Part shown: positions 456 through 19,065 of the stretch, piece after piece
Layout of the letters: each line of letters begins with the position of its first letter
How positions within the stretch are numbered: the stretch's first letter is position 1
NCBI GenBank assembly: GCA_015232565.1
Contig: JADFZK010000011.1
Span: 358 to 64,357, forward strand
DNA from: Candidatus Omnitrophota bacterium
GTDB taxonomy: Bacteria; Omnitrophota; Gorgyraeia; Zapsychrales; Fredricksoniimonadaceae
Length of the DNA: 64,000 nt
Direction: 5' to 3'
Notes under the pieces: generated by a model
What the model saw: the letters and a program-made list of their open reading frames with translations, nothing else
What the model was told of the DNA's origin: nothing
Databases searched by the model: none
Translations under genes and position numbers: made by a program

Positions 456-3436
<2,981 letters not shown>

Positions 3437-3464
3437 AAGCCGCGCTCTGCTATTAAGCCCTGGT

Positions 3465-6400
3465 TTAAGCCTGTTCGGGGCCAGAAGATCTCTGGTAATA
3501 ACTCTGAAGCGATTCGACCGTGAAGCCTTCTTTTAAGCTGGCCTCAATGCCGTGTATTGCCGCCGCGGCGCCCTGGATGGTGGTAATGCAGGGGATATTG
3601 CGTAAAATAGCCGCCGCGCGGATCTTGCGCATATCGAACTGGCTTTTCTTGCCTGACGGCGTATTGATAACAAGATTTATCTCATCTTTCTGGATGAGTG
3701 TCAATATGTTGTTGTGGCCCTCGCCAGTCTTGTCTACCAGCGTGACCATGACGCCGCTGGTCCTTAAGACCTTGGCCGTGCCTTTGGTGGCGAACAACTT
3801 GAACCCCAGGTCGTGCAGGCGCTTGGCCATAAAAGCCACCGAACGCTTGTCGTTCTCGTTAACACTGATGAAAACGCCGCCCTTTTTGGGCAAACCCTGA
3901 TTGGCCGCCATCTGACTTTTGGCATACGCCGCGCCAAAAGTAGGCGCCATGCCCATAACCTCGCCGGTGGACTTCATTTCCGGTCCCAGGATGATGTCCA
4001 CGCCCGAAAAGCGCGAGAACGGCAGAACGCATTCCTTGACCGCCACCATGCCCAGGCGGTCGATATCCGGCAACTTAAAGCCCGACAGTTTCTCGCCGGC
4101 CATTATGCGCGCGGCCATCTTGGCCAGCGGCACGCCGATAGCCTTCGACACAAAAGGCACCGTGCGCGACGCCCGCGGATTAACTTCCAGAATAAAGACC
4201 TTCTCGCCTTTTACCGCGAACTGGATATTAAGCAGGCCGATGACTTTCAACGCCAGCGCAATACGGCGAGTGTGCTCTTTTATTTCCGCCAAAATCTCTT
4301 CGCTTAAGGTATGCGGCGGCAAAACACAGGCCGAATCACCCGAATGGATGCCCGCATTCTCAATATGCTCCATGATACCCGCCACGTAAACCTGCTCGCC
4401 GTCACAGACCGCGTCAACGTCGACTTCCATGGCGTCTTCGATGAACTTGTCGATCAAAATAGGATGGCCGCGCGAAACATCCGTGATCTCGTCGATAAAA
4501 GACATCAGGGACTCTTCGTCGTACACAATGCGCATCGCCCGGCCGCCCAGCACATAAGACGGGCGCACCAGGACCGGATACCCCACCCGCAAAGCCGCGG
4601 CAGCGGTTTCTTCCACAGTAGTAGCCGTGGCATTATTAGGCTGGCTGATCTTCAGCTCATCCATTAAAGCGGCGAATTTCTCGCGGTTTTCAGCGGTATC
4701 AATAGAGTCCACACTGGTGCCGATAATTGGCGCACCGGCCTGTTTCAGGCGGCGGGCCAGGTTCAGCGGAGTCTGCCCGCCAAACTGCACAATAACGCCG
4801 TCCGGCTTCTCGACATCCATAATATTCATTACATCTTCGAAAGTAAGCGGCTCGAAATAAAGGCGGTCGGAAGTATCGTAATCCGTAGACACGGTTTCCG
4901 GATTGGAATTAACCATGATGGTCTCGAAGCCCCGCTCCTTGAGCGCGAAAGCCGCGTGGCAGCAGCAATAATCAAATTCAATGCCCTGGCCGATACGGTT
5001 CGGGCCGCCGCCCAGGATCATGATCTTCCGGCGGGTAGTGCCTTTGGCCTGGGCTTTAGTAAGCTTTTCATTCTGCAGGATGGCCTCATCCTCGGTCTCG
5101 TAGGTAGAATAAAAATAAGGCGTATACGCTTCAAATTCCGCCGCGCAGGTATCCACCACTTTAAACGTGGCCACAATACCCTTTTGTTTGCGCAGGGTGC
5201 GCACCGCGCTCTCGGACATATCCATGATCTCGGCCAGCTGGGGATCGGAAAAACCCCACTCTTTGGCCTGACGCAAGGTTTTATCCGACAAGGTTTTGGC
5301 CGCGGCGAACTCGGCGATCATCTCGTTCTCAAAATCAAGCAACTGTTTCATCTGGGCGATGAACCAGATATCCATGCGCGTATGCTCGACCACCTGGTCT
5401 ACAGTCATGCCGCTCTGCAGGGCATACTTGATGTAAAAGATCCGCGACGCGTTCGGTTCACGCAAGCGCTGTAGCAGCTTGGCTTCCTCGATATTGCGAT
5501 AATCGGTCTTGTTGTCAAAACCGATATGATGTATTTCCAGCCCCCGCAAACCCTTTTGCAAAGACTCCTTGAAAGTCCGGCCGATGGCCATGGTCTCGCC
5601 GACCGACTTCATTTGAATGCCCAGCACATCCTGGGCTTCGGGGAATTTCTCGAAAGTAAAGCGCGGGATCTTGGTAACACAATAATCTATGGCCGGCTCG
5701 AACGAAGCCGGGGTTTCGCGGGTAATATCGTTCTGGATCTCGTCGAGCGAATAGCCCACCGCCAGCTTGGCCGCAAACTTGGCGATCGGAAAGCCCGTCG
5801 CCTTGGACGCCAGCGCGGAAGAGCGCGAAACGCGCGGGTTCATTTCAATTACCACCATCCGGCCGGTCTTGGGATGCACCGCGAACTGGATATTGGAACC
5901 GCCGGTTTCAACCCCGATCTCGCGGATAAGCGCCAGCGACTGGTCGCGCATCTGCTGGTATTCGCGGTCGGTCAGGGTTTGCGCCGGCGCCACGGTAATG
6001 GAATCACCGGTATGCACGCCCATGGGGTCGATGTTCTCGATAGCGCAAACAATGACCACATTGTCCTTGTTATCGCGCATTACCTCCAGCTCAAATTCTT
6101 TCCAGCCCTCGATGGATTCTTCAATAAGGATTTCCGAGATCATACTGCTGTCAATACCGCGCTGGGCCTTGACGTCGAAATCCTCGCGGGAATAAACAAT
6201 GGAACCGCCCGTGCCGCCCAACGTAAAGCTGGAGCGGATAATACACGGGAACCCGATCTCTTTAACGACCTCGCGGGCTTCGTCCAGAGTATAAGCAAAA
6301 GAACTGCGCGGCAAGTCCAGGCCGATGCTCTGGCAAGCCTGCTTGAACTGTTTGCGGTCCTCGGCCTTTTTAATGACCTCGTACCTGGCACCCAGCATTT

Positions 6401-6740
6401 CCACGTTATATTTCTTAAGAATGCCTTTTTCCCACAGCTCAACCGCCAGGTTAAGGCCGGTCTGGCCGCCCAAAGTCGGCAGGATAGCATCCGGGCGTTC
6501 CTTAATAATGATCTTTTCCAGGAACTCGACGTTAAGCGGCTCAATATAGGTATGCGGTGCGGTTTCCGGATCGGTCATGATAGTGGCCGGATTGGAATTA
6601 ACCAGCACGATCTCGAAACCCTCTTCGCGCAAAGCCTTGCAAGCCTGGGTACCGGAATAATCAAATTCACAGGCCTGGCCGATCACGATGGGGCCGGAAC
6701 CGATGAGGAGGATCTTTTTAATGTCAGTGCGTTTGGGCAT
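3465..6740 (-). CDS. carB: Carbamoyl-phosphate synthase large subunit
   Basis: 1091 aa. Duplicated ATP-grasp halves, oligomerisation domain and MGS-like C-terminus; typical CarB length. Confidence 0.97.
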
Positions 6741-6753
6741 AATAAAAGGACTG

Positions 6754-7854
6754 TTACCCTTTTTTCAGGGTGAATTTTTCCATCATTTCAATGAAACGGC
6801 CAAATAAATATTTCGCGTCGTTAGGCCCCGGCGCCGCTTCCGGATGATATTGCACGGAAAATAACGGATATTTCTTATGGCGCAGGCCTTCGACCGTCTT
6901 GTCGTTAAGATTAATATGTATCGCCTCAACTTCAGCTTTATTCAAACTGTTTATGTCTACACAAAACCCATGGTTCTGGGAGGTAATGCTAATACGCCCG
7001 GTCTCCAGGTCTTTCACCGGATGGTTACAGCCGTGGTGCCCGAACTTGAGCTTATAGGTGCGGCCGCCCAGCGCCAGGCCGATCATCTGATTACCCAGAC
7101 AAATGCCGAATATCGGCTTTTTTCCGATCAGTTCCCGGACGGTGGCAATAACATTGGTGACCGCGGCTGGATCGCCCGGGCCATTAGCCAGGAAGATGCC
7201 GTCGGGATCGGCCGCCAGGATATCGGCGGCGCTGGTAGTAGGCGGAACCACGCTGGTTTCAATGCCCAGCCTGGCCATTTCGCGCAGAATATTCAACTTG
7301 ATACCGCAATCGATAGCCGTCACCCGGTACTTCTTCTGGCCTTCGGCTTTCCATACATACGGCTTTTTGGTAGCCACTTCCTTGACCCAGTCGGCGCCTT
7401 CCATGGACGGCACCTTGGCCAGCTTGACCTTGAGGCTCCGGGGATCGAAATCGTCGGTGGAAATAAGGCCCTTCATAGCGCCCGCCACCCGTAAATGACG
7501 GGTAAGCGCGCGCGTATCCACGCCTTCAATACCGATGACCTTGTTCTCGTCCAGGTATTGAATAAGGCCTTTATTAGCCCGGAAATTGGAATAGGTGCGG
7601 CAGAATTCCTTGACCACGAAACCCTTCACATGCACCCGGGAGGATTCCACGTCTTCATCGTTAATGCCGTAATTGCCAATAAGGGGGTAGGTCATCACCA
7701 CGATCTGCCCGGCATAGGAAGGATCGGTAAGGACTTCCTGATAACCGGACAGGGCGGTATTAAAAACAACTTCGCCGGCCGATTCTCCGTGGATATTCAG
7801 GGATCTGCCGTAAAAACATTTGCCGTCTTCGAGGTAAAGGACTGCTTCTTTCAT
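6754..7854 (-). CDS. carA: Carbamoyl-phosphate synthase small subunit (glutamine amidotransferase)
   Basis: 366 aa. CPSase small-chain N-domain plus GATase (GICLGNQ); immediately upstream of carB. Confidence 0.96.
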
Positions 7855-7915
7855 CTGCGACTATTCTTATTTAGAGGAGTCAAAATAGGAGGAAAATCCT
7901 TCCCAAAACTTGCAC

Positions 7916-7944
7916 TACTATAACACCGTTTTTCTTTATGTCAA
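7916..7944 (-). promoter_or_regulatory. Sigma70-like promoter of the carA-carB-purF-pyrG operon: -35 TTGACA (7944..7939), 17-bp spacer, -10 TATAGT (7921..7916).
   Basis: Minus strand reads TTGACAtaaagaaaaacggtgtTATAGT, about 60 nt upstream of the carA ATG. Confidence 0.55.
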
Positions 7945-8206
7945 GGCGGGCAAAAATGAATGTGAATTCCCAGAGTAAACACCAAATACTGCCCCATTTG
8001 CTCCTTCTTCGTGGCCCTGGATCCTTTCTGTCCACTATCCCCAAAAATCAGCACGTAAAAACAACCACGTCGACAAAATCTTTATTATCAGACGCTATGA
8101 AATTAAACGGGCTTCCGAGGAATGCGCACCTAATCGTGCACTAATCATGCAAATCGTGAATGATTGAGGGAAAACATATTTGACAGCCCGCCGAAGCGCG
8201 CCCCTG

Positions 8207-8258
8207 AGCCCTTGTTGAACCCATTATGAGCCCTTTGAGCCCTTTATGAGCCCTTTCC
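8207..8258. repeat. Short tandem GAGCCCTT(T) repeat: 4 copies at 9/12-bp spacing overlapping the stop codon of the DUF4062 gene. It encodes the KGS/KGL C-terminal tail.
   Basis: gagcccttt at 8228, 8237 and 8249, plus gagccctt at 8207. Confidence 0.6.
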
Positions 8259-9705
8259 CTTTCAAATGATATGCTGTTCCTCTCCCAGTAACGCCAAGCC
8301 TCTCAATAACCCCTTTCTTCAAAAGATCCATCAAATCCCGAGTAGCTGTAGCCTTGGAAGCGCCAGACATCTCCCTATAATCATTATTCGTAATCTGACC
8401 ATTCTTCTTAATTAACTTTACGGCCCGCATTTGCCTTTCATTCAACCCCATACTCAAAAGAACGGCATCCGTTAACACATCCCGGGAAATGATCGTCTTA
8501 AACTCCAAATTCCTCACCGAAACAAACTCCGGCTCCGGCAAACCGGCTTCTTTACATTGCCTGATGATCTCCATTGTCCCGGATCCGGCCTCCTGAACGT
8601 AATTCCCGTAAAACATGACCGATGCCAGTCGCGGATTGGCAGGATGCGATGTGTGCGTCTTTTTCAGGTCTTCCAGCTTGAGACTTGGCGGCAGTGTCCC
8701 CGAATTCAACACCTCCACGCGATCAAGAAAGACCATAACCTGTACTGCCGATGTCGTGTTGTAATTTCGATGCACGACGGCATTAATAATCGCCTCCTCA
8801 ATGGCAAACGACGGTATCTCCAACGGACGACTGACTTGAGCTGTGTTTTCCTGCTGAATCACCGGCAAACGGATAGCATCAAACACAAACCCGACCGCTT
8901 TGTCCACCTGCTCAAAAAGATTGCCCTCGTAAATATGATACGACGCGAACGGCTTCTGAACCTCGATGCTTGAAAACTGGATGCATTTAATCTTAGCCTG
9001 ATCAAAGAACTTGCGCGGTTCTTTGCCAAATAACAAAATCGCGGCATTGGTCAGTTTTCCATCTTTCAACAGCTTCCAATGAGTAAAGACATCTTCGGTA
9101 GACGCATCTACCGAGATCGGATAATTGCGCTTTTCCCTGGCGGTTCGCAAACACCACTTCACCTTATCCTCGTCAATATCTGAAAACTTAGCACCCTCGC
9201 ATATGCGCTGATCAAACTCGGCCCGGCTAACCACTCCCTGTGCTTTTAAGAACGTGATCAGGCTTTCATAAACGAAGTCAGTTAATTCAACCGTCGAATT
9301 GTAGCGACGATAACTGTAGCCAGACCTTGAGTCTTTGATCTCTTTGATGAGTTTCTGGACGCCTGCCTCGCGCTTCTTGTCGTTTGCGCCATTCTCGCCC
9401 TTGATGTAGAACAAAATCTCTTTATGATGCTTCTGGGCTTCCCGGAACTCCGCCTCCGTAGGCGACACCTCTGCGCCCTTGGAACCGCCATAACGATCAC
9501 CAAGCAACCCAATGTAAACATCACTTCCTCTGACCTCATTAAGATACGCGGTCTCGGGAGATTTTCCCTGTGCTGGCGCGTCCTCAAACAAGAACACATC
9601 GAAATGCTACGACAACAGCACATCGCCAAGAACGGACACCTTCACTGCCCGCCTCTCGGCTTTCAGATCCTTCTGCACTCCGCTAATGAAAACTTTATAT
9701 TTCAT
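8224..9705 (-). pseudogene. DUF4062 / Schlafen-like AlbA_2 divergent AAA / HATPase_c_4 (RecG-C-terminal-like) protein. The reading frame is interrupted by an in-frame TAG at 9609..9607 after codon 33. The ORF track restarts at GTG 9597.
   Basis: Minus strand from ATG 9705 translates MKYKVFISGVQKDLKAERRAVKVSVLGDVLLS*HFDVFLFEDAPAQ...DVYIGLLGDRYGG, a canonical DUF4062 N-terminus split by the amber codon. The C-terminal ASVMFYGNYVQEAGSGTMEI motif fits HATPase_c_4. Lower GC than flanking genes. Confidence 0.7.
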
Positions 9706-9843
9706 AATTTCTTCCACTCAATAGTGGTTGATTTGGCATCGCCGATGTATCGATTCCATACTTATTTCTCGCCTATAGTTTGCTCGAAATCAAAAACAAT
9801 TTGTTTCTTATTCATTGGTCACCCTTAGTGTCTATTTGTTGTT

Positions 9844-12480
9844 CTAATGGCCCAGGCGTTTTTTGTTGGCCAGGTAATTGGCCTCGCCGAGGATCTTGCG
9901 GGCCAGGGCGTCCTTGTTCTGGCCATTATCAAAATCGTAGTCCATGACCGCCAGATAGCTCAGCAGATTGCCGAACGGGGACTGCAGCATTTCCGGGCTG
10001 GAGGAGGACAGCGCGTCGATCTTGCTGACATATTCACCCGGAGAATGGCCTATACGGATACCTTCCTTGCGGAAACGGTCGATGAATTCCGAAACGGTCA
10101 ACAGCTTTACCTCCCGGTCGATGATCTGCGCCCAGGAGCGCGAGGAACGTTCCAGCGCCTGCCAAAGTTCATTGATACCCACGATAGTTTCCGGAAGCGG
10201 AGTTTCTGCGGCCGCGGCACCAGCAGCTTTGGAAGCCAGCACTTCACTCTCCACCTCTTTGCCCAGCCGGCGGCGCACCTCCTGCTGATAAGCGGCATTG
10301 AGTGCGGCGCGTTTTTGCTGGACCGCGGCATTCTGATACGCCGCATGGGCCAGTAATTGCCTCTCGGTAGTCTCCTGCACCGCTTGCGCCGCCTGGGCCT
10401 GCATAAGGGCATTGCGCTTGGCGGCATATTCCGCGTACTGCCGGATCTCGCCGTTCAACTGCGCCTGGGTTTGCGCTTCCTTATACGCCTTCATTTCCTG
10501 AGCCTGTTTATACGCGTTCAATTCCGCCGCGTTCCGGTAGGCCGCCGCCTGCTGATATTGCGCCGCTTCCATTCCCTGCTTTTGCGCCACCGCCTGAACC
10601 ACTTGCGCGGCCTGTTCTTCTTCGGCTTTCTTTTTGGCCATGGCCATTTCCATAGCCTGCTTTTGAATGGCATATTCTTCCGCGGCTTTTTGCGCGACTG
10701 CCTCTTGATACTGCCGCTGGGCCACCGCCTGCTTGTACGCCTCAACCTGCTGGGCCTGCTGATACGCCGCCATTTGCTGAGCCTGCTGTTGCTGCATCAT
10801 TTGCTGTTGGTACTGCTGGGCGGCCTGGGCCTGCATTTGTTTTTGTTGCTGGACCCGGCGCTGAACCGCCGCGGCGGCGTGCGCGGAAGAAGCCTGGCAC
10901 AAAAAAGGGATCAACAAGATAAATAGCGCAGGCTTTTTAAAACCCGCGAACAGCGAACGGAATTTGGCCAGGAAGCTTATCATAGAAATTATTATAACAA
11001 AGGCCAGGCACGCCCATACAAAAACATCGCCAAATTTGGTATGGAAAGTGCTCCCGCTGGCCAGCGGAATGTCCAGGGCGGTCCAGCCGGTAGATTGCAA
11101 AGCGACTGCTTTTAGTACCCGGCCGCGGGAATCAAAACCCGCACTCCAGCCGGTATTCGCCGCGCGCACCAGCGGCCGGCCGGTCTCCACCGCGCGAAAA
11201 ACTGCCAGCGCCCCATGCATCATTAAAGCTTCCGGCCGCTGAAACCAGCCGTCGTTAAGAACGCTTATGAAGAACCCGGCATTTCGCAAAGCCAGGTCCC
11301 GGGCCAGCGCCGGATATCCTTCCTCAGAACAGATCAGCAACCCGGCGCTGATCTTGTTATCACCCAAAGCAAATAACCCGCGCCGATCACCGGGTAAAAA
11401 ATGATAACTTCCCATCCCGGCAGTACGGGCCAGCCAGACCGAAAATGGATCACTGGGTAAATATTCGCTAAAAGGCACCAGATGGCGCTTGTAATAAATG
11501 TCCCGCCATTGGCCCCGCCGGTCCAGAAGCAGTAAAGCATTAAGATCGTGGTCGTCCTCGGAAAGCAGGGCCGAACCCAGGACGAACCCCACGTTCAGGT
11601 TGCGCGCTACCATTTCGATCCGCGGCCGCCAGAGCGGATCGCGCAAAATATCATCGGGAAAAGCGGTCTCGGGCCAAATAACAATATCGGGCCGGGCCGC
11701 CTGCACGGCTTTCTTGCTGAGGATCAAATGCCGTCCGACATTTTCGTTATACAACGCAACGTTGGCCTTGTCCGCCCGAGAGATATTGGGCTGTACCAAC
11801 ACCACGCGCAAGCGCTGACCGGCCGGTAGGCCCTCCGTCATCATAACCCCCGAACCAATAAAGCCCACAATAAAGGGAAAGGTGATCATCAACCAAAAGA
11901 ACGGCGCTCTTATGACGCCCGACCTCTTCTGCCTGATCAGCAAGAACAGCCCGGTAGAAAAAAAGAGCAACAGCCAGCTGACCGCGTAGACCCCCCCAAA
12001 ACGCGCAGCCTGCACCAGCTCAGGGATCATGGCCTGGGAAACCCCCAGTCCCCAGGTAAAACCACCCAGCAATTGATTGCGTAAATATTCACTAACGACC
12101 CAGGCACAAGGCAGAAAGAACAGGTCGCTGACCCAACTGCGTCGCTCAACGAGGCTCAAGACCGCAAAAAGCGCACCCTGCAAAGCCAGCGCCAGAACCA
12201 GAACCACATAACCTGCCAGCGATACCGGCACCAGCCACCAGAGCAACAAACCATACGCCGCCACACCCCAAGCGAATCCCAGCCCGACCTTAAGCCGCCA
12301 GCCCTTACCCTCCAGTAAAAACAAAAGGGGGATGGCCATCAGCCACCCCCCGATAAATAAACCGTTAATGAATATCAAATTAGAAAACGAAAGCCAAAAC
12401 AAAACCGCCGATAACGCTAAAAACAAAAAAATAGTGTTTAGCATAAGCTTCCCGGGCCAGGTGAAGCGCTCTCCAGCCAC
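9844..12480 (-). CDS. lnt: Apolipoprotein N-acyltransferase (Lnt; 8 TM helices plus CN-hydrolase domain, ~aa 1-500) continuing in frame into a signal-peptide-like hydrophobic segment, a ~190-aa Q/A-rich coiled-coil region and a ~150-aa C-terminal domain of unknown function.
   Basis: 878-aa ORF with no stop between the Lnt C-terminal TM helix and the extension. An internal ATG at 10983 begins MISFLAKFRSLFAGFKKPALFILLIPFLCQASSAHA (signal-peptide-like). Q/A-rich repeats (YQQAQ, AYKQA) span 10300-10890. The stop codon is TAG at 9844-9846. Confidence 0.75.
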   Translation of the reverse strand: MAGERFTWPGKLMLNTIFLFLALSAVLFWLSFSNLIFINGLFIGGWLMAIPLLFLLEGKGWRLKVGLGFAWGVAAYGLLLWWLVPVSLAGYVVLVLALALQGALFAVLSLVERRSWVSDLFFLPCAWVVSEYLRNQLLGGFTWGLGVSQAMIPELVQAARFGGVYAVSWLLLFFSTGLFLLIRQKRSGVIRAPFFWLMITFPFIVGFIGSGVMMTEGLPAGQRLRVVLVQPNISRADKANVALYNENVGRHLILSKKAVQAARPDIVIWPETAFPDDILRDPLWRPRIEMVARNLNVGFVLGSALLSEDDHDLNALLLLDRRGQWRDIYYKRHLVPFSEYLPSDPFSVWLARTAGMGSYHFLPGDRRGLFALGDNKISAGLLICSEEGYPALARDLALRNAGFFISVLNDGWFQRPEALMMHGALAVFRAVETGRPLVRAANTGWSAGFDSRGRVLKAVALQSTGWTALDIPLASGSTFHTKFGDVFVWACLAFVIIISMISFLAKFRSLFAGFKKPALFILLIPFLCQASSAHAAAAVQRRVQQQKQMQAQAAQQYQQQMMQQQQAQQMAAYQQAQQVEAYKQAVAQRQYQEAVAQKAAEEYAIQKQAMEMAMAKKKAEEEQAAQVVQAVAQKQGMEAAQYQQAAAYRNAAELNAYKQAQEMKAYKEAQTQAQLNGEIRQYAEYAAKRNALMQAQAAQAVQETTERQLLAHAAYQNAAVQQKRAALNAAYQQEVRRRLGKEVESEVLASKAAGAAAAETPLPETIVGINELWQALERSSRSWAQIIDREVKLLTVSEFIDRFRKEGIRIGHSPGEYVSKIDALSSSSPEMLQSPFGNLLSYLAVMDYDFDNGQNKDALARKILGEANYLANKKRLGH

Positions 12481-12483
12481 CGC

Positions 12484-13056
12484 TTACTGCCCGGCGGGAA
12501 CGGCCGGTTGAGCGCTAACAGGTACTGCGTCCAGGGCTTTTTGCGCATCCGCCGCCGCATTGGCAGTGGCCGCATCTTCCGACTTTTGCTTGGCCGCCTG
12601 CACCAGCCCCGCCAAAAGCACCGCCGCGCGCTTTACGCCATCCTGATCCTGCTTGGCATTGAATATTTCCACGCTCCGGCGGGCCGCCTGAATGGCCGGC
12701 ATATCCTGCCCGGCGCCTTCATGTGCCACCGCCAACAAGTAATATGCCAAACCATTATCGGGAAACTGCCGCGCCGCAGTGGACAACACCGAGATCGCCT
12801 GGGGATACTGCTTTAAATGCACAAAAGTCTCGCTCAACATAAAATAACCTTCAAAATCACCGGGGGCGGCCTTGATCGCAGTGGCAAAACTCCCAACTGC
12901 GTTTTTAATATCACCCTGCTTCAAATATACCGTACCCTCCACGAGCAATTTCTTGGCCACCGCATTGTTTGCCGGTTCCGCTACCGCCGCTTCCTTCTTC
13001 GCGCAACCGGTGAATAACAGCCCCGCGATCAACAACATTGCCATGGATCTTTTCAT
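12484..13056 (-). CDS. TPR-repeat lipoprotein (signal peptide with LFTGC lipobox)
   Basis: 190 aa. MKRSMAMLLIAGLLFTGC, then TPR-like helices and an Ala-rich C-terminus. 4-nt gap to lnt. Confidence 0.7.
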   Translation of the reverse strand: MKRSMAMLLIAGLLFTGCAKKEAAVAEPANNAVAKKLLVEGTVYLKQGDIKNAVGSFATAIKAAPGDFEGYFMLSETFVHLKQYPQAISVLSTAARQFPDNGLAYYLLAVAHEGAGQDMPAIQAARRSVEIFNAKQDQDGVKRAAVLLAGLVQAAKQKSEDAATANAAADAQKALDAVPVSAQPAVPAGQ

Positions 13057-13091
13057 GCTACCTCCTGGTTTTTTACGCTCCCGGGGAGCTT

Positions 13092-14531
13092 TTAAGCCTG
13101 TCCCGGGCGGATCAAATACTCATGAACATTTTCCGCGGCTGTGCGGCCTTCCTGAATAGCCCACACCACCAGCGACTGCCCGCGGGTCATATCTCCCGCC
13201 GTGAACACACCCGGCAATGAAGTCATTTTGTCCGGTCCCGCTTTCACGTTACCCCGCGGGTCCAGCTCCACCGCCAGCTTTTCTACCAAACCACCCTTAA
13301 CCGGGCTCAGGAAACCCAAAGCCAGAAAAACCAGGTCGCAAGCTATCTCAAACTGTGAACCCGGCACCTCTTTCATAACCGGGCGGCCATTGGCATCTTT
13401 GGCCGACCAATCCAACCGTACGGCGTGGATCATCTTCACATTGCCATTCTCATCACCCGAGAAACTTTTGGTCAGGATATTATAATCCCGCTCACAGCCC
13501 TCTTCGTGCGAAGTGGACGTGCGCATGATAAAAGCCCAATTGGGCCAGGGGTTATCGTCCGCCCGAACAACCGGCGGCTTGGGCATCAGCTCAAACTGCA
13601 ACACCTCCGCCGCGCTCAGGCGGTTGGAAGTGCCCACGCAATCAGACCCCGTGTCTCCACCCCCCAGGACCACTACCTTTTTACCTTTAACATCAATAAA
13701 CTCTTTATTATCTACCTTGGTACCCATTAACAGGCGGGTCTTCTGGGAAAGATACTGCATGGCGAAATATACACCCTTTAACTCCCGGCCCGGCACCGCA
13801 ATATCCCGGGGCAATTCGGCCCCGCCGCACAAGACCAGCGCGTTGAATTGTTTGCGCAAGGCGTTGGGATCCACATCAACTCCCACATTCACCCCGGTCT
13901 TGAAAATCACGCCTTCCTGCTCCATCCGCTTGACCCGGCGCGCGACTACAGACTTCTCTAACTTGAAATTCGGGATCCCCAGCGTTAAAAGACCTCCGAC
14001 CACTTCATTCTTTTCGTACACCGTAACCTGATGGCCCTTTTTATTCAACTGGTCGGCACAAGCCAGGCCGGCCGGCCCCGAGCCAATTACCGCAACTTTA
14101 AATCCGCTGCGCTTTTGGGGCGGCTCGGGCTTAACCCAGCCTTCGGCATACCCGCGCTCAATTATCGCCAGCTCGATATTCTTTATTGTCACCGCCGGAT
14201 TATTGATCGCCAGCGTGCAGGAATTCTCGCAAGGAGCCGGACAGATCCGCCCGGTGAACTCGGGAAAATTATTGGTCTTATGCAGGCGCGCCAGGGCGTC
14301 TTTCCACTGGCCCTTGTTAACCAGGTCGTTCCAGGCCGGAATAATATTGCCCACCGGACAGCCCCACTGGCAAAAAGGCACGCCGCAATCCATACAACGG
14401 CCGCTCTGCTCCTTAAGGCCCTGCTCCTCGGGCAGTTTAATAAACTCTTTCCAGTGCTGTAACCGCCCGCTCACCGGTTCTTTGGTATATTCTGCGCGCC
14501 CGTATTTTAAAAAACCCTTAACTTCGCCCAT
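13092..14531 (-). CDS. gltD: Glutamate synthase (NADPH) small subunit
   Basis: 479 aa. N-terminal Cys cluster CMDCGVPFCQWGCP and FAD/NAD(P)-binding GSGPAGL motif. Confidence 0.93.
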   Translation of the reverse strand: MGEVKGFLKYGRAEYTKEPVSGRLQHWKEFIKLPEEQGLKEQSGRCMDCGVPFCQWGCPVGNIIPAWNDLVNKGQWKDALARLHKTNNFPEFTGRICPAPCENSCTLAINNPAVTIKNIELAIIERGYAEGWVKPEPPQKRSGFKVAVIGSGPAGLACADQLNKKGHQVTVYEKNEVVGGLLTLGIPNFKLEKSVVARRVKRMEQEGVIFKTGVNVGVDVDPNALRKQFNALVLCGGAELPRDIAVPGRELKGVYFAMQYLSQKTRLLMGTKVDNKEFIDVKGKKVVVLGGGDTGSDCVGTSNRLSAAEVLQFELMPKPPVVRADDNPWPNWAFIMRTSTSHEEGCERDYNILTKSFSGDENGNVKMIHAVRLDWSAKDANGRPVMKEVPGSQFEIACDLVFLALGFLSPVKGGLVEKLAVELDPRGNVKAGPDKMTSLPGVFTAGDMTRGQSLVVWAIQEGRTAAENVHEYLIRPGQA

Positions 14532-14547
14532 ATAGCTACCTTTTTAT

Positions 14548-17500
14548 TTAGACTGCTTTCTTCTTTGCCGCCTCTAAAGCCAGGCGGAAATCACGCGGAT
14601 AAACCTTAACGAACTGCGGCAAGGTACTGGCCCAGCCATCCAGGAGAGACTTCGCCGTGGTACTGCCGGTATACTGTAAATGGCGCTCGATCATGGTCTT
14701 TAATTCCGCCACATCCTGCTCTTCCTTGACCGGGAACAATTCCACCATGCCCATATTGCACAACTTGCCAAACTTGCCGTCGGGATCCCAAACATAGGCA
14801 ATACCGCCCGACATACCCGCCGCAAAATTGCGCCCCGTACTGCCCAGGACCACCACCCGGCCGCCGGTCATATATTCACAACCATGATCGCCCACACCTT
14901 CCACGACCGCCAAACCACCCGAATTGCGCACCGCAAAACGCTCGCCGGCCACTCCACGGAAATAAGCTTCGCCGCAAATAGCCCCGTAAAGCACCACATT
15001 GCCAGCCAGGATATTCTCGGCGGCCACCAGCGTGGATTTGCTAGCAGGATACACTATAATACGCCCGCCCGACAATCCCTTACCCACATAATCGTTGGCA
15101 TCGCCTGCCAGCTCGAAGGTGACTCCTTTGGAAAGAAAGGCCCCGAAACTCTGCCCGGCCGAACCGCTGAAATCAATGTGGATGGTCTCATCTTTCAACC
15201 CCGCCATGCCATACTTACGGGCAATAGTGGAACTCAACATGGTGCCCACTGTACGATTGACGTTCCGCACCTCGCAGGCAAAGCGGATCGGCGTACCGGT
15301 ATCAATAGCATTATTGCATTTGGCTATAAGCTCATTGTCCAGCGCTTTTTCCAGACCGTGCTCCTGTTTCAGGCAGTGCCGGATCGGAATATTCTTCGGC
15401 ACATCCGCCCGATGCAGGATATTGGCCAGGTCAATGCCCTTTAATTTCCAGTGCCCGATGACTTCTTTCATTTCCAGCATGTCCACCCGGCCGATCATGT
15501 CCTCAAACTTCCGGAAACCCAGCTCGGCCATCAACTCACGAATTTCCTCAGCCACAAAAGTAAAGAAACTCACCACATATTCCGGCTTACCGGCAAAATT
15601 GGCGCGTAAAAGCGGATCCTGGGTAGCAATGCCCACCGAACAAGCATCCAGATGGCATTTGCGCAACATGATACAACCCAGCGTCACCAGCGCTATAGTG
15701 GAAAAACCGAACTCGTCTGCTCCGAGCATGGCGGTAATTACCACATCCCGCCCGGTCTTGAGCTGTCCGTCGGCCTGAACACGAATACGGCCGCGCAGGT
15801 CGTTCATTACCAGCACCTGCTGGGTCTCCGCCAGGCCCAGCTCCATCGGCAGGCCGGCGTGTTTAATTGAAGTCTGCGGCGACGCGCCAGTACCGCCGTC
15901 GTAACCGGAAATAAGCACATGATCGGATTTGCCCTTGGACACCCCGGCCGCCACCGTGCCGACCCCCACTTCGGAAACCAGCTTAACGCTGACATCCGCC
16001 CGCGGATTGGCGTTCTTCAGATCGTGGATCAACTGGGCCAGGTCTTCGATAGAATAAATATCATGGTGCGGCGGCGGCGAGATCAACTGAACGCCCGGGG
16101 TCGTGCCGCGAGTACCGGCGATCTCTTTGGTAACCTTATGGCCCGGCAATTGCCCGCCTTCACCAGGCTTGGCGCCCTGCGCCATCTTGATCTGCATCTG
16201 ATCAGAATTGACCAAATACTCGATATTCACTCCAAACCGTCCCTGCGCCACTTGTTTGATGCGGCTGCGGCGGTAATCTCCATTGGGGTCTTTCTTGAAT
16301 CGACCCGGATCCTCGCCGCCCTCTCCGGTGTTGGAGAATCCGCCCAAGCGGTTCATGGCGATAGCCAAAGTTTCGTGGGCTTCCCGGGAAATAGAACCAT
16401 AACTCATCGCACCGGTAGCAAAACGCTTGACGATCTCGCTGGCCGGTTCGACCTCCGCAATTGGCACCGCCTGGCCCTTCTTAAACTGCATAAGGCCGCG
16501 AATATTAGCCACGGCCCGCCCCGTTTCATTAACGGTACGGGAAAACTTCTTGAACAACTGATAATCGTTGGCGCGCACCGCCTGCTGTAAAGTAGCAATG
16601 ACCTCGGGATTGATCTGGTGGAACTCACCGTCCTTGCGCCAGTGGTACCAACCGCCCTCATCGAGCAGTTCGTCGACCGGCCCAAATTCCGGATAAGCCG
16701 CGGTATGGCGGCGCAAAGTTTCCTCGGCCACGGTCCCGATCTCGATCCCGCCGATGCGCGAAGGCGTGGCGGTAAAATACCTCTCTATTAATTCTTTCCC
16801 CAGGCCCACCGCTTCAAAGATCTGGGCGCCGCAATACGACTGAATAGTCGAAATGCCCATCTTGGAAATAACCTTGAACAAACCCTTGCGCGTCGCCTTG
16901 ATGTAATTCTTCTCGGCGTGATGATAATCCAGGCCGGGGCCTTTAAAATTCCCTTTGGCCACTTCGCTCTCAATGGTTTCCAAAGCCAGGTAAGGATTGA
17001 TCGCATTCGCCCCGTAACCAATCAGGACCGCAAAATGATGCATTTCCCGCGCCTCACCGGTTTCCAATACAATAGAAACCTTGGTGCGCGCACCTTTACG
17101 GATCAAATGATGATGCAAACCGGCACAAGCCAGCAAGGACGGTATGGCCACATTGCGGGCGCTCATTTCCCGGTCGGACAAGACCAGAATGTTCACTCCT
17201 TCGCTCACCGCTTTATCCACCCGGGCAAACAACATGTCCAAAGCTTTGGCCAGGCCAGCCACCCCTTCCGCTTTAGGGAAGACGATCGGCAAAGTAGCGC
17301 TTTTAAGGCCAGTCAAATTAACGTGCGCAACTTGCTCCAGTTCCCGGTTGGTGAGGATCGGGCGGGCCAGCCGCAAACGACGGGCATGCTCCGGCGTTTC
17401 CGCCAGGATATTGCCTTCCGAACCCAGGTACACATTCTCCGCCATCACGATCTCTTCGCGAATAGCATCCACCGGCGGATTGGTAACCTGGGCAAAAAGC

Positions 17501-19065
17501 TGTTTGAAATAATTAAACAAAAGCTGGGGCCGCAAGGAGAGCACCGCGACCGGATTATCGGCGCCCATGGAACCCGTGGCTTCTTCACTATTCTCGACCA
17601 TCGCCTTAAGGACGATCTTCAGGTCTTCCTGGGTGTACCCGAAAGCGCGCTGGCGCTCCAGCAAAGTCTTTTCGTTCAGCCCGCTGACCTTTTTAGGCTC
17701 CGGCAGGTTCTTCACATCAACAATATTGTCCTTCAGCCACTGGCCATACGGCTGGCGGCGGGCATAAGTCTCTTTTATCTCCCGGTCATCAATAATACGT
17801 CCAACCTGGGTATCGATCAGGAACATCTTGCCCGGCTGCAGACGGCCTTTCTTTGCGACCCGCTCCGGAGCAATGGGCAAAACACCCGTCTCGGAAGCCA
17901 TCACAACCAGCCCGTCTTTGGTGATCGTATATCTGGACGGACGCAAACCGTTACGATCCAGAACCGCGCCGATATAACGGCCATCGGTGAAAGCTATGCA
18001 GGCCGGGCCATCCCACGGCTCCATTAAAAGGGAATGATATTCATAAAAAGCCCGTTTCTCCTCGCTGATGGCCTCGTCGCCCACCCAGGCCTCGGGCACC
18101 ATCATCAACACGGCATGCGGCAGGGAACGGCCGGCCATTACCAACAGCTCCAGCGCATTGTCAAAAGAAGCCGAGTCGCTCCCGAAGGGGCCGACGATCG
18201 GATAGATCTTCTTGACATCCTTGCCAAAAAGGTCGTTAGCCATTTGCGCTTCCCGCGCGCGCATCCAGTTCAAATTCCCGCGCAGGGTATTGATCTCGCC
18301 GTTATGGGCCATCATGCGGTACGGATGCGCCAAAGACCAGGTCGGAAAAGTATTGGTACTGTAGCGCGAATGGACCAGCGCCAGGGCTGAAGTCATGTCG
18401 GGATCGGCCAGGTCGGCAAAGAACGGACCCAGCTGTTCGGCCATGAACTGGCCTTTATAAACCAGCGTTTGCGACGACAGGCTGCAAACGTAAAAATAAC
18501 TGCGGTCATGCACGGTGGAAGTGTGCACCTTGGTCCAACAGCGCTTGCGCAGAACGTAAAGCTTACGCTCAAACTCTTCCGGCTTCGTATCCACGCCGCG
18601 GCCAATGAACAACTGCCGCAGTTCCGGCTGTACCGAATGCGCCACCCGGCCCACATGCCGATCATCATGCGGAATAACGCGCCAGCCCAAAAACTGCTGG
18701 CCTTCCTCACGGATGATCTGCTCCACCCACTCCTCGATAATATTACACGACTGAGTTTCGCCGGGCAAAAACACCAGCCCGCAGGCATAGTCTCCGGCCG
18801 CCGGCAACTCAAAACCTTCCGCCTTGGCCGCCTTGCGCAGGAACTGGTCGGGCATCTGCAGTAAAATACCCGCGCCATCCCCAGTTAAAGGATCACACCC
18901 GCAAGCGCCGCGGTGCGACAGGTTCTCCAGGACCTGAAGGCCCTGCCGGACGATATCATGCGACTTGCGCCCCTGGATGTCTGCCACAAAGCCGACACCG
19001 CAAGCGTCATGTTCGAATTGGGGGTCGTAAAGCCCCTGTTTGGACGGTAAGCCACTAATGTTCAT
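14548..19065 (-). CDS. gltB: Glutamate synthase large subunit (ferredoxin/NADPH type)
   Basis: 1505 aa. N-terminal Ntn amidotransferase (FEHDACGVGF), central domain, FMN-binding domain and GXGXG C-domain. Confidence 0.96.
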   Translation of the reverse strand: MNISGLPSKQGLYDPQFEHDACGVGFVADIQGRKSHDIVRQGLQVLENLSHRGACGCDPLTGDGAGILLQMPDQFLRKAAKAEGFELPAAGDYACGLVFLPGETQSCNIIEEWVEQIIREEGQQFLGWRVIPHDDRHVGRVAHSVQPELRQLFIGRGVDTKPEEFERKLYVLRKRCWTKVHTSTVHDRSYFYVCSLSSQTLVYKGQFMAEQLGPFFADLADPDMTSALALVHSRYSTNTFPTWSLAHPYRMMAHNGEINTLRGNLNWMRAREAQMANDLFGKDVKKIYPIVGPFGSDSASFDNALELLVMAGRSLPHAVLMMVPEAWVGDEAISEEKRAFYEYHSLLMEPWDGPACIAFTDGRYIGAVLDRNGLRPSRYTITKDGLVVMASETGVLPIAPERVAKKGRLQPGKMFLIDTQVGRIIDDREIKETYARRQPYGQWLKDNIVDVKNLPEPKKVSGLNEKTLLERQRAFGYTQEDLKIVLKAMVENSEEATGSMGADNPVAVLSLRPQLLFNYFKQLFAQVTNPPVDAIREEIVMAENVYLGSEGNILAETPEHARRLRLARPILTNRELEQVAHVNLTGLKSATLPIVFPKAEGVAGLAKALDMLFARVDKAVSEGVNILVLSDREMSARNVAIPSLLACAGLHHHLIRKGARTKVSIVLETGEAREMHHFAVLIGYGANAINPYLALETIESEVAKGNFKGPGLDYHHAEKNYIKATRKGLFKVISKMGISTIQSYCGAQIFEAVGLGKELIERYFTATPSRIGGIEIGTVAEETLRRHTAAYPEFGPVDELLDEGGWYHWRKDGEFHQINPEVIATLQQAVRANDYQLFKKFSRTVNETGRAVANIRGLMQFKKGQAVPIAEVEPASEIVKRFATGAMSYGSISREAHETLAIAMNRLGGFSNTGEGGEDPGRFKKDPNGDYRRSRIKQVAQGRFGVNIEYLVNSDQMQIKMAQGAKPGEGGQLPGHKVTKEIAGTRGTTPGVQLISPPPHHDIYSIEDLAQLIHDLKNANPRADVSVKLVSEVGVGTVAAGVSKGKSDHVLISGYDGGTGASPQTSIKHAGLPMELGLAETQQVLVMNDLRGRIRVQADGQLKTGRDVVITAMLGADEFGFSTIALVTLGCIMLRKCHLDACSVGIATQDPLLRANFAGKPEYVVSFFTFVAEEIRELMAELGFRKFEDMIGRVDMLEMKEVIGHWKLKGIDLANILHRADVPKNIPIRHCLKQEHGLEKALDNELIAKCNNAIDTGTPIRFACEVRNVNRTVGTMLSSTIARKYGMAGLKDETIHIDFSGSAGQSFGAFLSKGVTFELAGDANDYVGKGLSGGRIIVYPASKSTLVAAENILAGNVVLYGAICGEAYFRGVAGERFAVRNSGGLAVVEGVGDHGCEYMTGGRVVVLGSTGRNFAAGMSGGIAYVWDPDGKFGKLCNMGMVELFPVKEEQDVAELKTMIERHLQYTGSTTAKSLLDGWASTLPQFVKVYPRDFRLALEAAKKKAV

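Follow-up and report, generated by a model that had tools for sequence, protein, structure and literature searches.

The analysed stretch, called here the window, consists of 64,000 nucleotides (nt) of the Candidatus Omnitrophota bacterium assembly GCA_015232565.1 (contig JADFZK010000011.1, positions 358 to 64,357). At 9844..12480 it carries a single open reading frame (ORF) in which lnt, the gene for apolipoprotein N-acyltransferase (Lnt), is merged with the gene directly downstream. We name the latter gene ds, and we call fused or merged those cases where lnt and ds share one reading frame. All window features described below lie on the minus strand. Counted from GTG 12480, the ORF has 878 codons. 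It is a two-gene merger, and it is real, conserved, and intact. We consider it probable that overlapping lnt and ds genes merged in a subclade of Omnitrophota, with cleavage of the precursor and separate expression of ds.

The ORF analysis of the window shows a stop-free reading frame from the last transmembrane (TM) helix of Lnt into the downstream sequence. ATG 10983 is in frame, as residue 500. The first-pass annotation of this DNA had already noticed that no stop separates Lnt from the extension, and the same junction is now seen in seven more assemblies. The full 878-amino-acid (aa) query recovered seven fused proteins of 818-870 aa with 50-100% identity, the window's own among them. This result led us to reject the idea that all homologues of the extension stand alone. 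Fused ORFs are present in at least eight independent Omnitrophota assemblies or lineages, including the window, from NCBI, JGI, ENA, and Logan. Those of other lineages are 50-64% identical to the window product. The members of the fused clade are P0030-P0036, L001, and L007. In GenBank, the window product is MBF0386958.1 (831 aa), named only "apolipoprotein N-acyltransferase". L007 comes from a genome scan of a second Omnitrophota metagenome-assembled genome (MAG), and it has the same in-frame junction (...FVIIVLMRLCPLLLFPLLLMLLLPSDAQA|AAAVQRR). The DNA of two further fused genes likewise confirmed their junctions. The nearest stand-alone match, P0001, is at a contig edge, and the 39 nt on its 5' side encode in frame the Lnt TM8 sequence FVWACAGFVIIMF.

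An indel error near 10950-11000 could in principle have joined two out-of-frame genes. Such errors occur in MAG assemblies, relatives with separate genes exist, and short homopolymers (tttt, aaaaa) are present at the window junction. Nevertheless, seven other independent assemblies from four data sources share the in-frame arrangement with different sequences, so the continuous frame is not a sequencing artefact. Compared with the unfused relatives, a tail of ~23 nt or longer has been lost, and not the single nucleotide of a slip. Either of the other frames meets a stop after a few codons and would cut TM8 short. A sequencing or assembly error is hardly credible as the origin of this ORF.

The relatives with separate genes have a gene order collinear with that of the window: gltB-gltD-TPR lipoprotein-lnt-ds-carA-carB-purF-pyrG. 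In them, lnt has 488-506 codons and its own stop. Their ds gene overlaps lnt by 4, 11, or 17 nt out of frame, or begins 1 nt past the lnt stop. The window ATG 10983 (MIS...) aligns with the ds start of one such locus, L004. With the extension alone as query, all homologues among the matches listed (29) were stand-alone proteins of 310-431 aa. The named ones in this listing (P0001-P0029) are nearly all from Candidatus Omnitrophica MAGs. Because relatives encode a separate ds with its own start, the downstream part is an independent gene that was later merged. The first-pass annotation had named as evidence against its reading an Lnt that ends shortly after TM8, followed by a separate gene with its own start, and this is what these relatives have. 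It had also set two alternatives against each other, a true fusion with an extra TM helix and a gene for a secreted protein with an internal start. The evidence speaks for the two together. The fusion part stands, as the ORF is genuine and conserved in its clade, although more distant relatives keep two genes.

In a poorly resolved neighbour-joining tree of the Lnt domain, the fused genes group together in a single clade, and two unfused genes are nested among them. P0037, one of the two nested genes, has lost its adjacent ds gene and has a DUF1016 gene there instead. From these sequences, the junction state, fused or split, appears clearly labile in evolution.

The Lnt half has the domains and the catalytic motifs of the enzyme. 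Lnt proper occupies 10948..12444, with LNT_N at residues 24-175, CN_hydrolase at 228-474, and TM8 at 486-511. It matches the Lnt equivalog TIGR00546 with 254.4 bits (cutoff 132.9, E=2e-75), and the Pfam families PF20154 (LNT_N) and PF00795 (CN_hydrolase). The catalytic Glu-Lys-Cys triad is intact and aligns to the E. coli enzyme. More precisely, it consists of WPE (E269), KRHLVPF (K331), and CSEE (C384). Residues 65-504 align to residues 57-507 of Lnt chains in the PDB (E=6e-22). The AlphaFold2 (AF2) model of this half has a predicted local distance difference test (pLDDT) value of ~95. By homology, a bona fide Lnt spans residues ~24-500. The eight TM helices of the E. coli enzyme leave both of its ends in the cytoplasm, and its periplasmic domain bridges H7 and H8 (PMC5500888). 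The hydropathy and the AF2 helices of the window protein fit an eight-TM Lnt, and the alignment reaches E. coli TM8. The window chain passes beyond TM8 into a ninth hydrophobic segment.

The junction shows how the two genes were joined. Unfused Lnts extend 10-20 residues past the motif FVI[I/M] of TM8, first as a hydrophobic stretch and then as a basic tail. In the fused Lnts, only 2 residues lie between FVII and the Met of ds (7 of 8; the eighth has GTG), and the ds signal peptide follows. The merged clade has lost the cytoplasmic tail and the stop of Lnt, and the ds start lies inside TM8. A Met at +3 after the motif is present in 7/8 fused proteins vs 1/19 unfused ones (Fisher p=7e-5, a value that ignores kinship).

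The segment 10876..10983 is the predicted ds signal peptide, and it is also the end of TM8, a basic cytoplasmic turn, and the ninth hydrophobic segment. From ATG 10983 onward it reads MISFLAKFRSLFAGFKKPALFILLIPFLCQASSAHA|AAAVQRR, with four K/R, a 12-residue hydrophobic core, and A at -3/-1. Its n-region is MISFLAKFRSLFAGFKK, its h-region PALFILLIPFLC (10897-10932), and its c-region QASSAHA. A signal peptidase I site, AHA|AAA, is predicted after 10876, and the segment has the type-I features, including no lipobox Cys at +1. All eight fused junctions (8/8) have 1-4 K/R, a core of 11-16 hydrophobic residues, helix-breaking residues, A or V at -3, and A at -1. In every merged gene this design stands directly before the conserved mature N-terminus AAAVQRR. 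Most stand-alone homologues have the same design, and their signal peptide ends ...(S/A)D(A/V)(F/Q/H)A|AAA(V/M)QRR. The residue pattern thus agrees with the first-pass annotation, which had described a signal-peptide-like segment with an AHA site and ATG 10983. Its other proposal, an extra TM helix that returns the chain to the periplasm, gains support from the homology of TM8 to E. coli Lnt. Since TM8 by homology ends in the cytoplasm, the segment after it would have to cross from the cytoplasm to the periplasm. The fusion would therefore place the ds protein in the periplasm, in agreement with its signal peptide. A terminator-like hairpin at 10948-10927, within the signal-peptide codons, was rejected. 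There were 8 such hairpins vs 5.7 ± 2.0 in shuffles, not above expectation.

Upstream of the ds start, lnt itself contains a conserved extended -10 box, TTTGTTATAAT, at 10991..11001 (TGnTATAAT at 10991-10999). It is the proposed ds promoter, and it encodes F-V-I-I of TM8. The FVI[I/M] codons are TTT GTT ATA AT in every locus, fused or unfused, which reads TGTTATAAT. The 11-mer is identical in 10/10 distinct lineages, down to 34% Lnt identity. The 9-nt core has a single copy in the 64-kb window and agrees with the extended -10 consensus at each of its 8 specified bases. The box uses ATA, a rare codon (5-19% of Ile codons), and from local codon usage its three synonymous choices are expected at 0.7-3.4% per lineage. 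All three synonymous sites of the box are invariant (3/3), vs 2/20 third positions in the upstream codons (mean conservation 0.56). At the protein level, 24/25 Lnts of the clade have the FVI[IM] motif, compared with 0/66 other Lnts. The sole exception has TATACT, at a locus where ds is no longer adjacent. From this pattern of conservation, we conclude that selection appears to act on the DNA of the box and so to dictate these TM8 residues. Most simply, the box would serve ds as its promoter. A -35 element is dispensable in promoters of the extended -10 type. In the mycobacterial map of transcription start sites (TSSs), TGN-TANNNT promoters were the strongest class and were strong without a -35 (PMC3898074).

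The internal ATG at 10981..10983 (Met500), the ancestral ds start, is 7 nt after TATAAT. No Shine-Dalgarno sequence is found upstream of it; by contrast, the TPR lipoprotein gene upstream of lnt has aGGAGGtagcATG (GGAGG). In unfused loci, 30-47 nt separate TATAAT from the ds start. In the fused loci with DNA this distance is exactly 7 nt (5/5; four ATG, one GTG). In the published map, TANNNT lies 7-12 bp upstream of TSSs, with a purine preferred at +1 (PMC3898074), and a -10 box that abuts the ORF is a hallmark of leaderless genes (PMC12340547). A leaderless transcript probably gives the ds protein on its own as well.

Our explanation would then work as follows. Translation of lnt would give a precursor consisting of Lnt, signal peptide, and rod, the rod being the Q/A-rich helical part of the ds protein. 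Because no stop codon follows lnt, this fusion polypeptide must be synthesised. The core of the signal peptide would insert as a ninth TM segment and export the rod to the periplasm. Cleavage at AHA|AAA by signal peptidase I is then probable, and it would leave an Lnt with a short extra hairpin and a mature rod. These products would equal those of relatives with separate genes. The fused and split states would thus be nearly equivalent, which would explain their evolutionary interchange. In parallel, the TGTTATAAT box would direct transcription of ds, with a leaderless transcript that starts at the ATG 7 nt downstream. The residues after the ds Met would serve three roles, as the end of Lnt TM8, as a basic cytoplasmic anchor, and as the n-region of the signal peptide. 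This triple role may be the reason that no new stop evolved. Once released, the rod protein could work in the periplasm or envelope with Lnt and/or the TPR lipoprotein, and its C-terminal domain might be a binding module. We make this last proposal with low confidence.

Several observations weigh against this explanation. Promoter activity, leaderless start, and signal-peptidase cleavage are all read from sequence. A sigma-70 two-hexamer scan finds no canonical -35 at 16-18 nt from the box and, as no -35 is present, does not call a junction promoter. The only -35 candidate, a conserved TTG, stands 19 nt from TATAAT, a suboptimal distance. The promoter rules of Omnitrophota may differ from those assumed here. 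A search of the other window genes for starts next to a -10 box gave a handful of matches and no clear leaderless signature. The AF2 model has low confidence on the signal-peptide core (pLDDT 52-69), and the Arg at mature positions +6/+7 could slow Sec export. Furthermore, the motif conservation and the Met statistics ignore shared ancestry, and no homology assigns a function to ds.

Two other readings of the junction accept the merged ORF. One is a stable bifunctional fusion with a permanent ninth TM helix, an uncut A-x-A, and no separate ds product. Lnt would then be tethered to a periplasmic rod of ~15-30 nm, whose head domain contacts an envelope partner, in line with the tether to an envelope structure that the first-pass annotation had suggested. 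The stop-free ORF obliges the cell to make the fusion polypeptide, and the fusion is kept in eight lineages down to 50% identity. Gene fusion is also a classical sign of physical or functional association, and the locus always includes the gene of the TPR lipoprotein, which is itself a likely Lnt substrate. However, cores of 11-16 residues with helix breakers and A/V-x-A, found in 8/8 junctions, are typical of cleavable signal peptides and not of anchors. The conserved A-x-A site predicts release from Lnt, which weakens the tether idea. Most lineages make a free ds protein with a signal peptide, fused and unfused states interchange within one clade, and the start codon and -10 box are retained. 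We regard a permanently uncut fusion as unlikely. A particular form of it, in which the uncleaved protein is a periplasm-spanning bridge (a non-heptad rod of 15-30 nm whose novel-fold head docks on the outer-membrane TPR lipoprotein), we hold to be very unlikely. If true, it would link lipoprotein delivery or envelope spacing in Omnitrophota to the final step of lipoprotein maturation, and the embedded promoter would supply extra free rod protein to adjust the stoichiometry.

The other reading concerns the box. The TTTGTTATAAT element could be a signal at the RNA level, with ds translated from the lnt mRNA only. It might be an AU-rich ribosome standby or S1-binding site for the translation of ds, a site where RNase E parts the lnt message from that of ds, or a pause at a rare codon that aids TM8 insertion. 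The element is AU-rich and lies just 5' of the ds start in all lineages, it lacks a canonical -35, and its ATA is a rare codon. Likewise, the 4-17 nt overlaps in unfused relatives suggest translational coupling. On the other hand, the match to all 8 specified bases of the extended -10 consensus speaks for DNA. Between the element and the ds start lie 7 to 47 nt, depending on the lineage, and this spread fits a promoter with a variable leader better than a signal for translation. In the fused loci the distance is fixed at exactly that from -10 to TSS. A pause or a protein-level account does not need an invariant TTT and GTT. An RNA signal is thus quite unlikely in our judgement, and the merger with cleavage and separate ds expression is the explanation that we retain.

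Near the box, there is a second invariant stretch, GAT-nTT-TTT-G, at ~11019-11028 and at the homologous positions in eight loci. It encodes Lnt D-x-F. The stretch supplies the conserved TTG 19 nt before TATAAT. It may act as a weak -35 or as an upstream element, or may reflect no more than codon preference.

Some known systems resemble the merged ORF in part. In M. tuberculosis, Ppm1 (Rv2051c / BCG_2070c) has an Lnt domain fused to a polyprenol-monophosphomannose synthase domain, and the same two proteins are split into adjacent genes in M. smegmatis (MSMEG_3860/3859) and C. glutamicum (PMC3850990). As in Ppm1, a functional Lnt would carry a second protein on its C-terminus, and fused and split states alternate between lineages. 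In contrast, the Ppm1 partner is a cytoplasmic enzyme without a signal peptide, and the families are unrelated. The Omnitrophota partner would be an exported, non-enzymatic rod that uses an internal signal peptide and has its own start and predicted promoter. Neither Pfam nor NCBIfam finds a Ppm synthase (glycosyltransferase) domain in the extension.

The cytochrome b-c1 precursor FbcH of Bradyrhizobium japonicum is reportedly processed at an internal signal peptide (Thony-Meyer et al. 1991, PNAS). Its single ORF encodes a polytopic membrane protein with a cytoplasmic end, then a segment resembling a signal peptide, and then a periplasmic protein. Cleavage reportedly yields two mature proteins from this one gene, which is the mechanism that we propose for the merged ORF, and the predicted architecture of the latter fits. 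However, the proteins are unrelated, and cleavage is reported to be demonstrated for FbcH, whereas it is predicted for the merged ORF. The second half of FbcH is not known to have an internal promoter or start. In-frame nested genes with internal initiation are represented by E. coli CheA-L/CheA-S, ClpB, and the IF2 isoforms. As in these cases, one ORF has two in-frame starts and would give two products, the second being predicted here. Unlike these isoforms from one mRNA, the short product would be another protein altogether, one that is exported, has a separate evolutionary history, and probably comes from its own transcript.

To our knowledge, leaderless usage is undocumented in Omnitrophota. 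The ds start resembles the leaderless genes of Mycobacterium and Deinococcus-Thermus in having TANNNT/TATAAT a few nt 5' of an ATG/GTG without Shine-Dalgarno (PMC3898074, PMC12340547). Unlike in those genes, the box and start lie in frame within lnt and dictate FVI[IM]. The closest comparison is with the stand-alone Omnitrophota ds proteins (P0001-P0029, annotated "hypothetical protein"), which are orthologues with 40-63% identity. They share the signal peptide, the AAA(V/M)QRR mature N-terminus, the Q/A-rich helices, and the C-terminal domain. They differ from the window in that their genes are separate, and overlap or abut the lnt stop codon. The novelty is the combination of these features in an unstudied phylum and an uncharacterised family, with a conserved, predicted promoter box that shapes a TM helix. 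We found no paper linking Omnitrophota and Lnt in the literature.

These results have consequences for annotation. The GenBank entries of 820-870 aa named "apolipoprotein N-acyltransferase" are nearly half a different, uncharacterised exported protein. The locus also presents a case of overlapping codes, as a conserved predicted promoter box appears to fix four TM-helix residues across a phylum-level clade. The gene pair switches between overlapping and fused states while the predicted mature products remain unchanged. If the leaderless start is true, leaderless, -10-adjacent expression would extend to another phylum. The fusion is independent evidence that the ds family is periplasmic and linked to Lnt and the TPR lipoprotein. 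This is a starting point for the envelope biology of the uncultured, ultra-small Omnitrophota.

The mature ds protein begins with a Q/A-rich helical rod of about 210 aa at 10240..10875, which starts at the conserved mature N-terminus AAAVQRRVQQQK. The Q/A-rich segment (residues 536-760, 225 aa) contains 27.6% A, 23.6% Q, and no Pro. In the full-length AF2 model, there are helices at 532-636 and 652-747 (pLDDT ~70), with a low-confidence break at 637-651. A low-confidence linker follows at 10177..10239 (residues 748-768 in AF2), and it is probably flexible. The first-pass annotation had proposed a Q/A-rich coiled coil of ~190 aa. The composition was described correctly, and the segment is longer, but it is not heptad-like. 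A canonical heptad coiled coil was rejected, as shuffles equal or exceed the observed power at periods 3.5-3.67 in a fraction of 0.16-0.93. There is a significant hydrophobic periodicity of 4.65 residues, and autocorrelation is strongest at lags 9/18 in the window and at lag 15 over the whole family. These periodicities point to non-heptad repeats of 9, 15, or 18 residues.

The rod and linker lead to a conserved all-alpha C-terminal domain at 9847..10176, with eight helices and the motif YDFDNGxNKD. Its model has pLDDT 93. A globular region had been expected here with ~150 aa; the domain is present, but it has only ~110-118 aa. No Pfam or NCBIfam model matches this domain or the extension. Likewise, the domain has no sequence or fold match in PDB and no match in BFVD. 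Its family comprises 381 clusters at 50% identity, and the domain invariably occupies the C-terminus of its host proteins, whose lengths are 114-568 aa. The named members are all from Omnitrophota, and a metagenome scan gave only one additional, distant locus. By these searches, it appears to be the founding domain of an unannotated family.

Most lnt-linked ds genes have Q/A-rich helices between the signal peptide and the C-terminal domain. P0122 (568 aa) has three tandem C-terminal domains behind a Q/M/K-rich helical region, and in the lnt-linked ds gene of L016 (4002-4619) a Pro/Ser-rich linker replaces the Q/A-rich helices. Because these spacers differ, the spacer seems interchangeable and the head domain constant. 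As the spacer varies, the constant parts of ds would be export, the basic mature N-terminus, and the head domain. Three loci (L008 3746-4339, L009 692-1252, and L010 2183-2716) encode proteins of ~180 aa in which hardly any spacer lies between a hydrophobic N-terminal anchor and the domain. These short versions are encoded directly after an S41-type (tail-specific protease-like) gene, a second conserved context of the domain.

There are three candidate starts for lnt: GTG 12480 (878 aa), ATG 12444 (866 aa), and ATG 12339 (831 aa). The last is the GenBank start, and it would drop TM1. ATG 12444 is just upstream of TM1 and is preceded by GGGAAG, and its 866-aa product includes TM1. We consider it a more plausible start than GTG 12480. 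P0015 is a stand-alone ds paralogue of 379 aa from MAG HQL18, and its N-terminus matches ORF residues 2-21 (AGERFTWPGKLMLNTIFLFL), upstream of ATG 12444, with 50% identity over 20 aa. Judged by this match, lnt would start at GTG 12480 or farther upstream, and P0015 could derive from a deletion of lnt that left Lnt TM1 as its signal peptide.

The TPR lipoprotein gene at 12484-13056 (N-terminus MKRSMAMLLIAGLLFTGC, with a lipobox) is syntenic with lnt/ds in every locus examined. As the first-pass annotation had indicated, it is just upstream of lnt; it ends 3 nt before GTG 12480. We rejected a MamA-like identity for its product, since 49.5 bits against a cutoff of 200 is generic TPR similarity. 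No Rfam family reaches the gathering score anywhere in the 64-kb window. The gltB...pyrG block (456-19065, all on the same strand) is collinear with Omnitrophota relatives down to ~45% protein identity. Judged by these comparisons, the order seems unusually stable for such divergent MAGs. Between ds and carA, at 8224-9597, there is a 457-aa gene with DUF4062, HATPase_c_4, and winged-helix domains. It looks like a lineage-specific insertion, because L002, L005, and L014 have carA directly after ds. In L011, a DUF1016 gene is inserted right after lnt.

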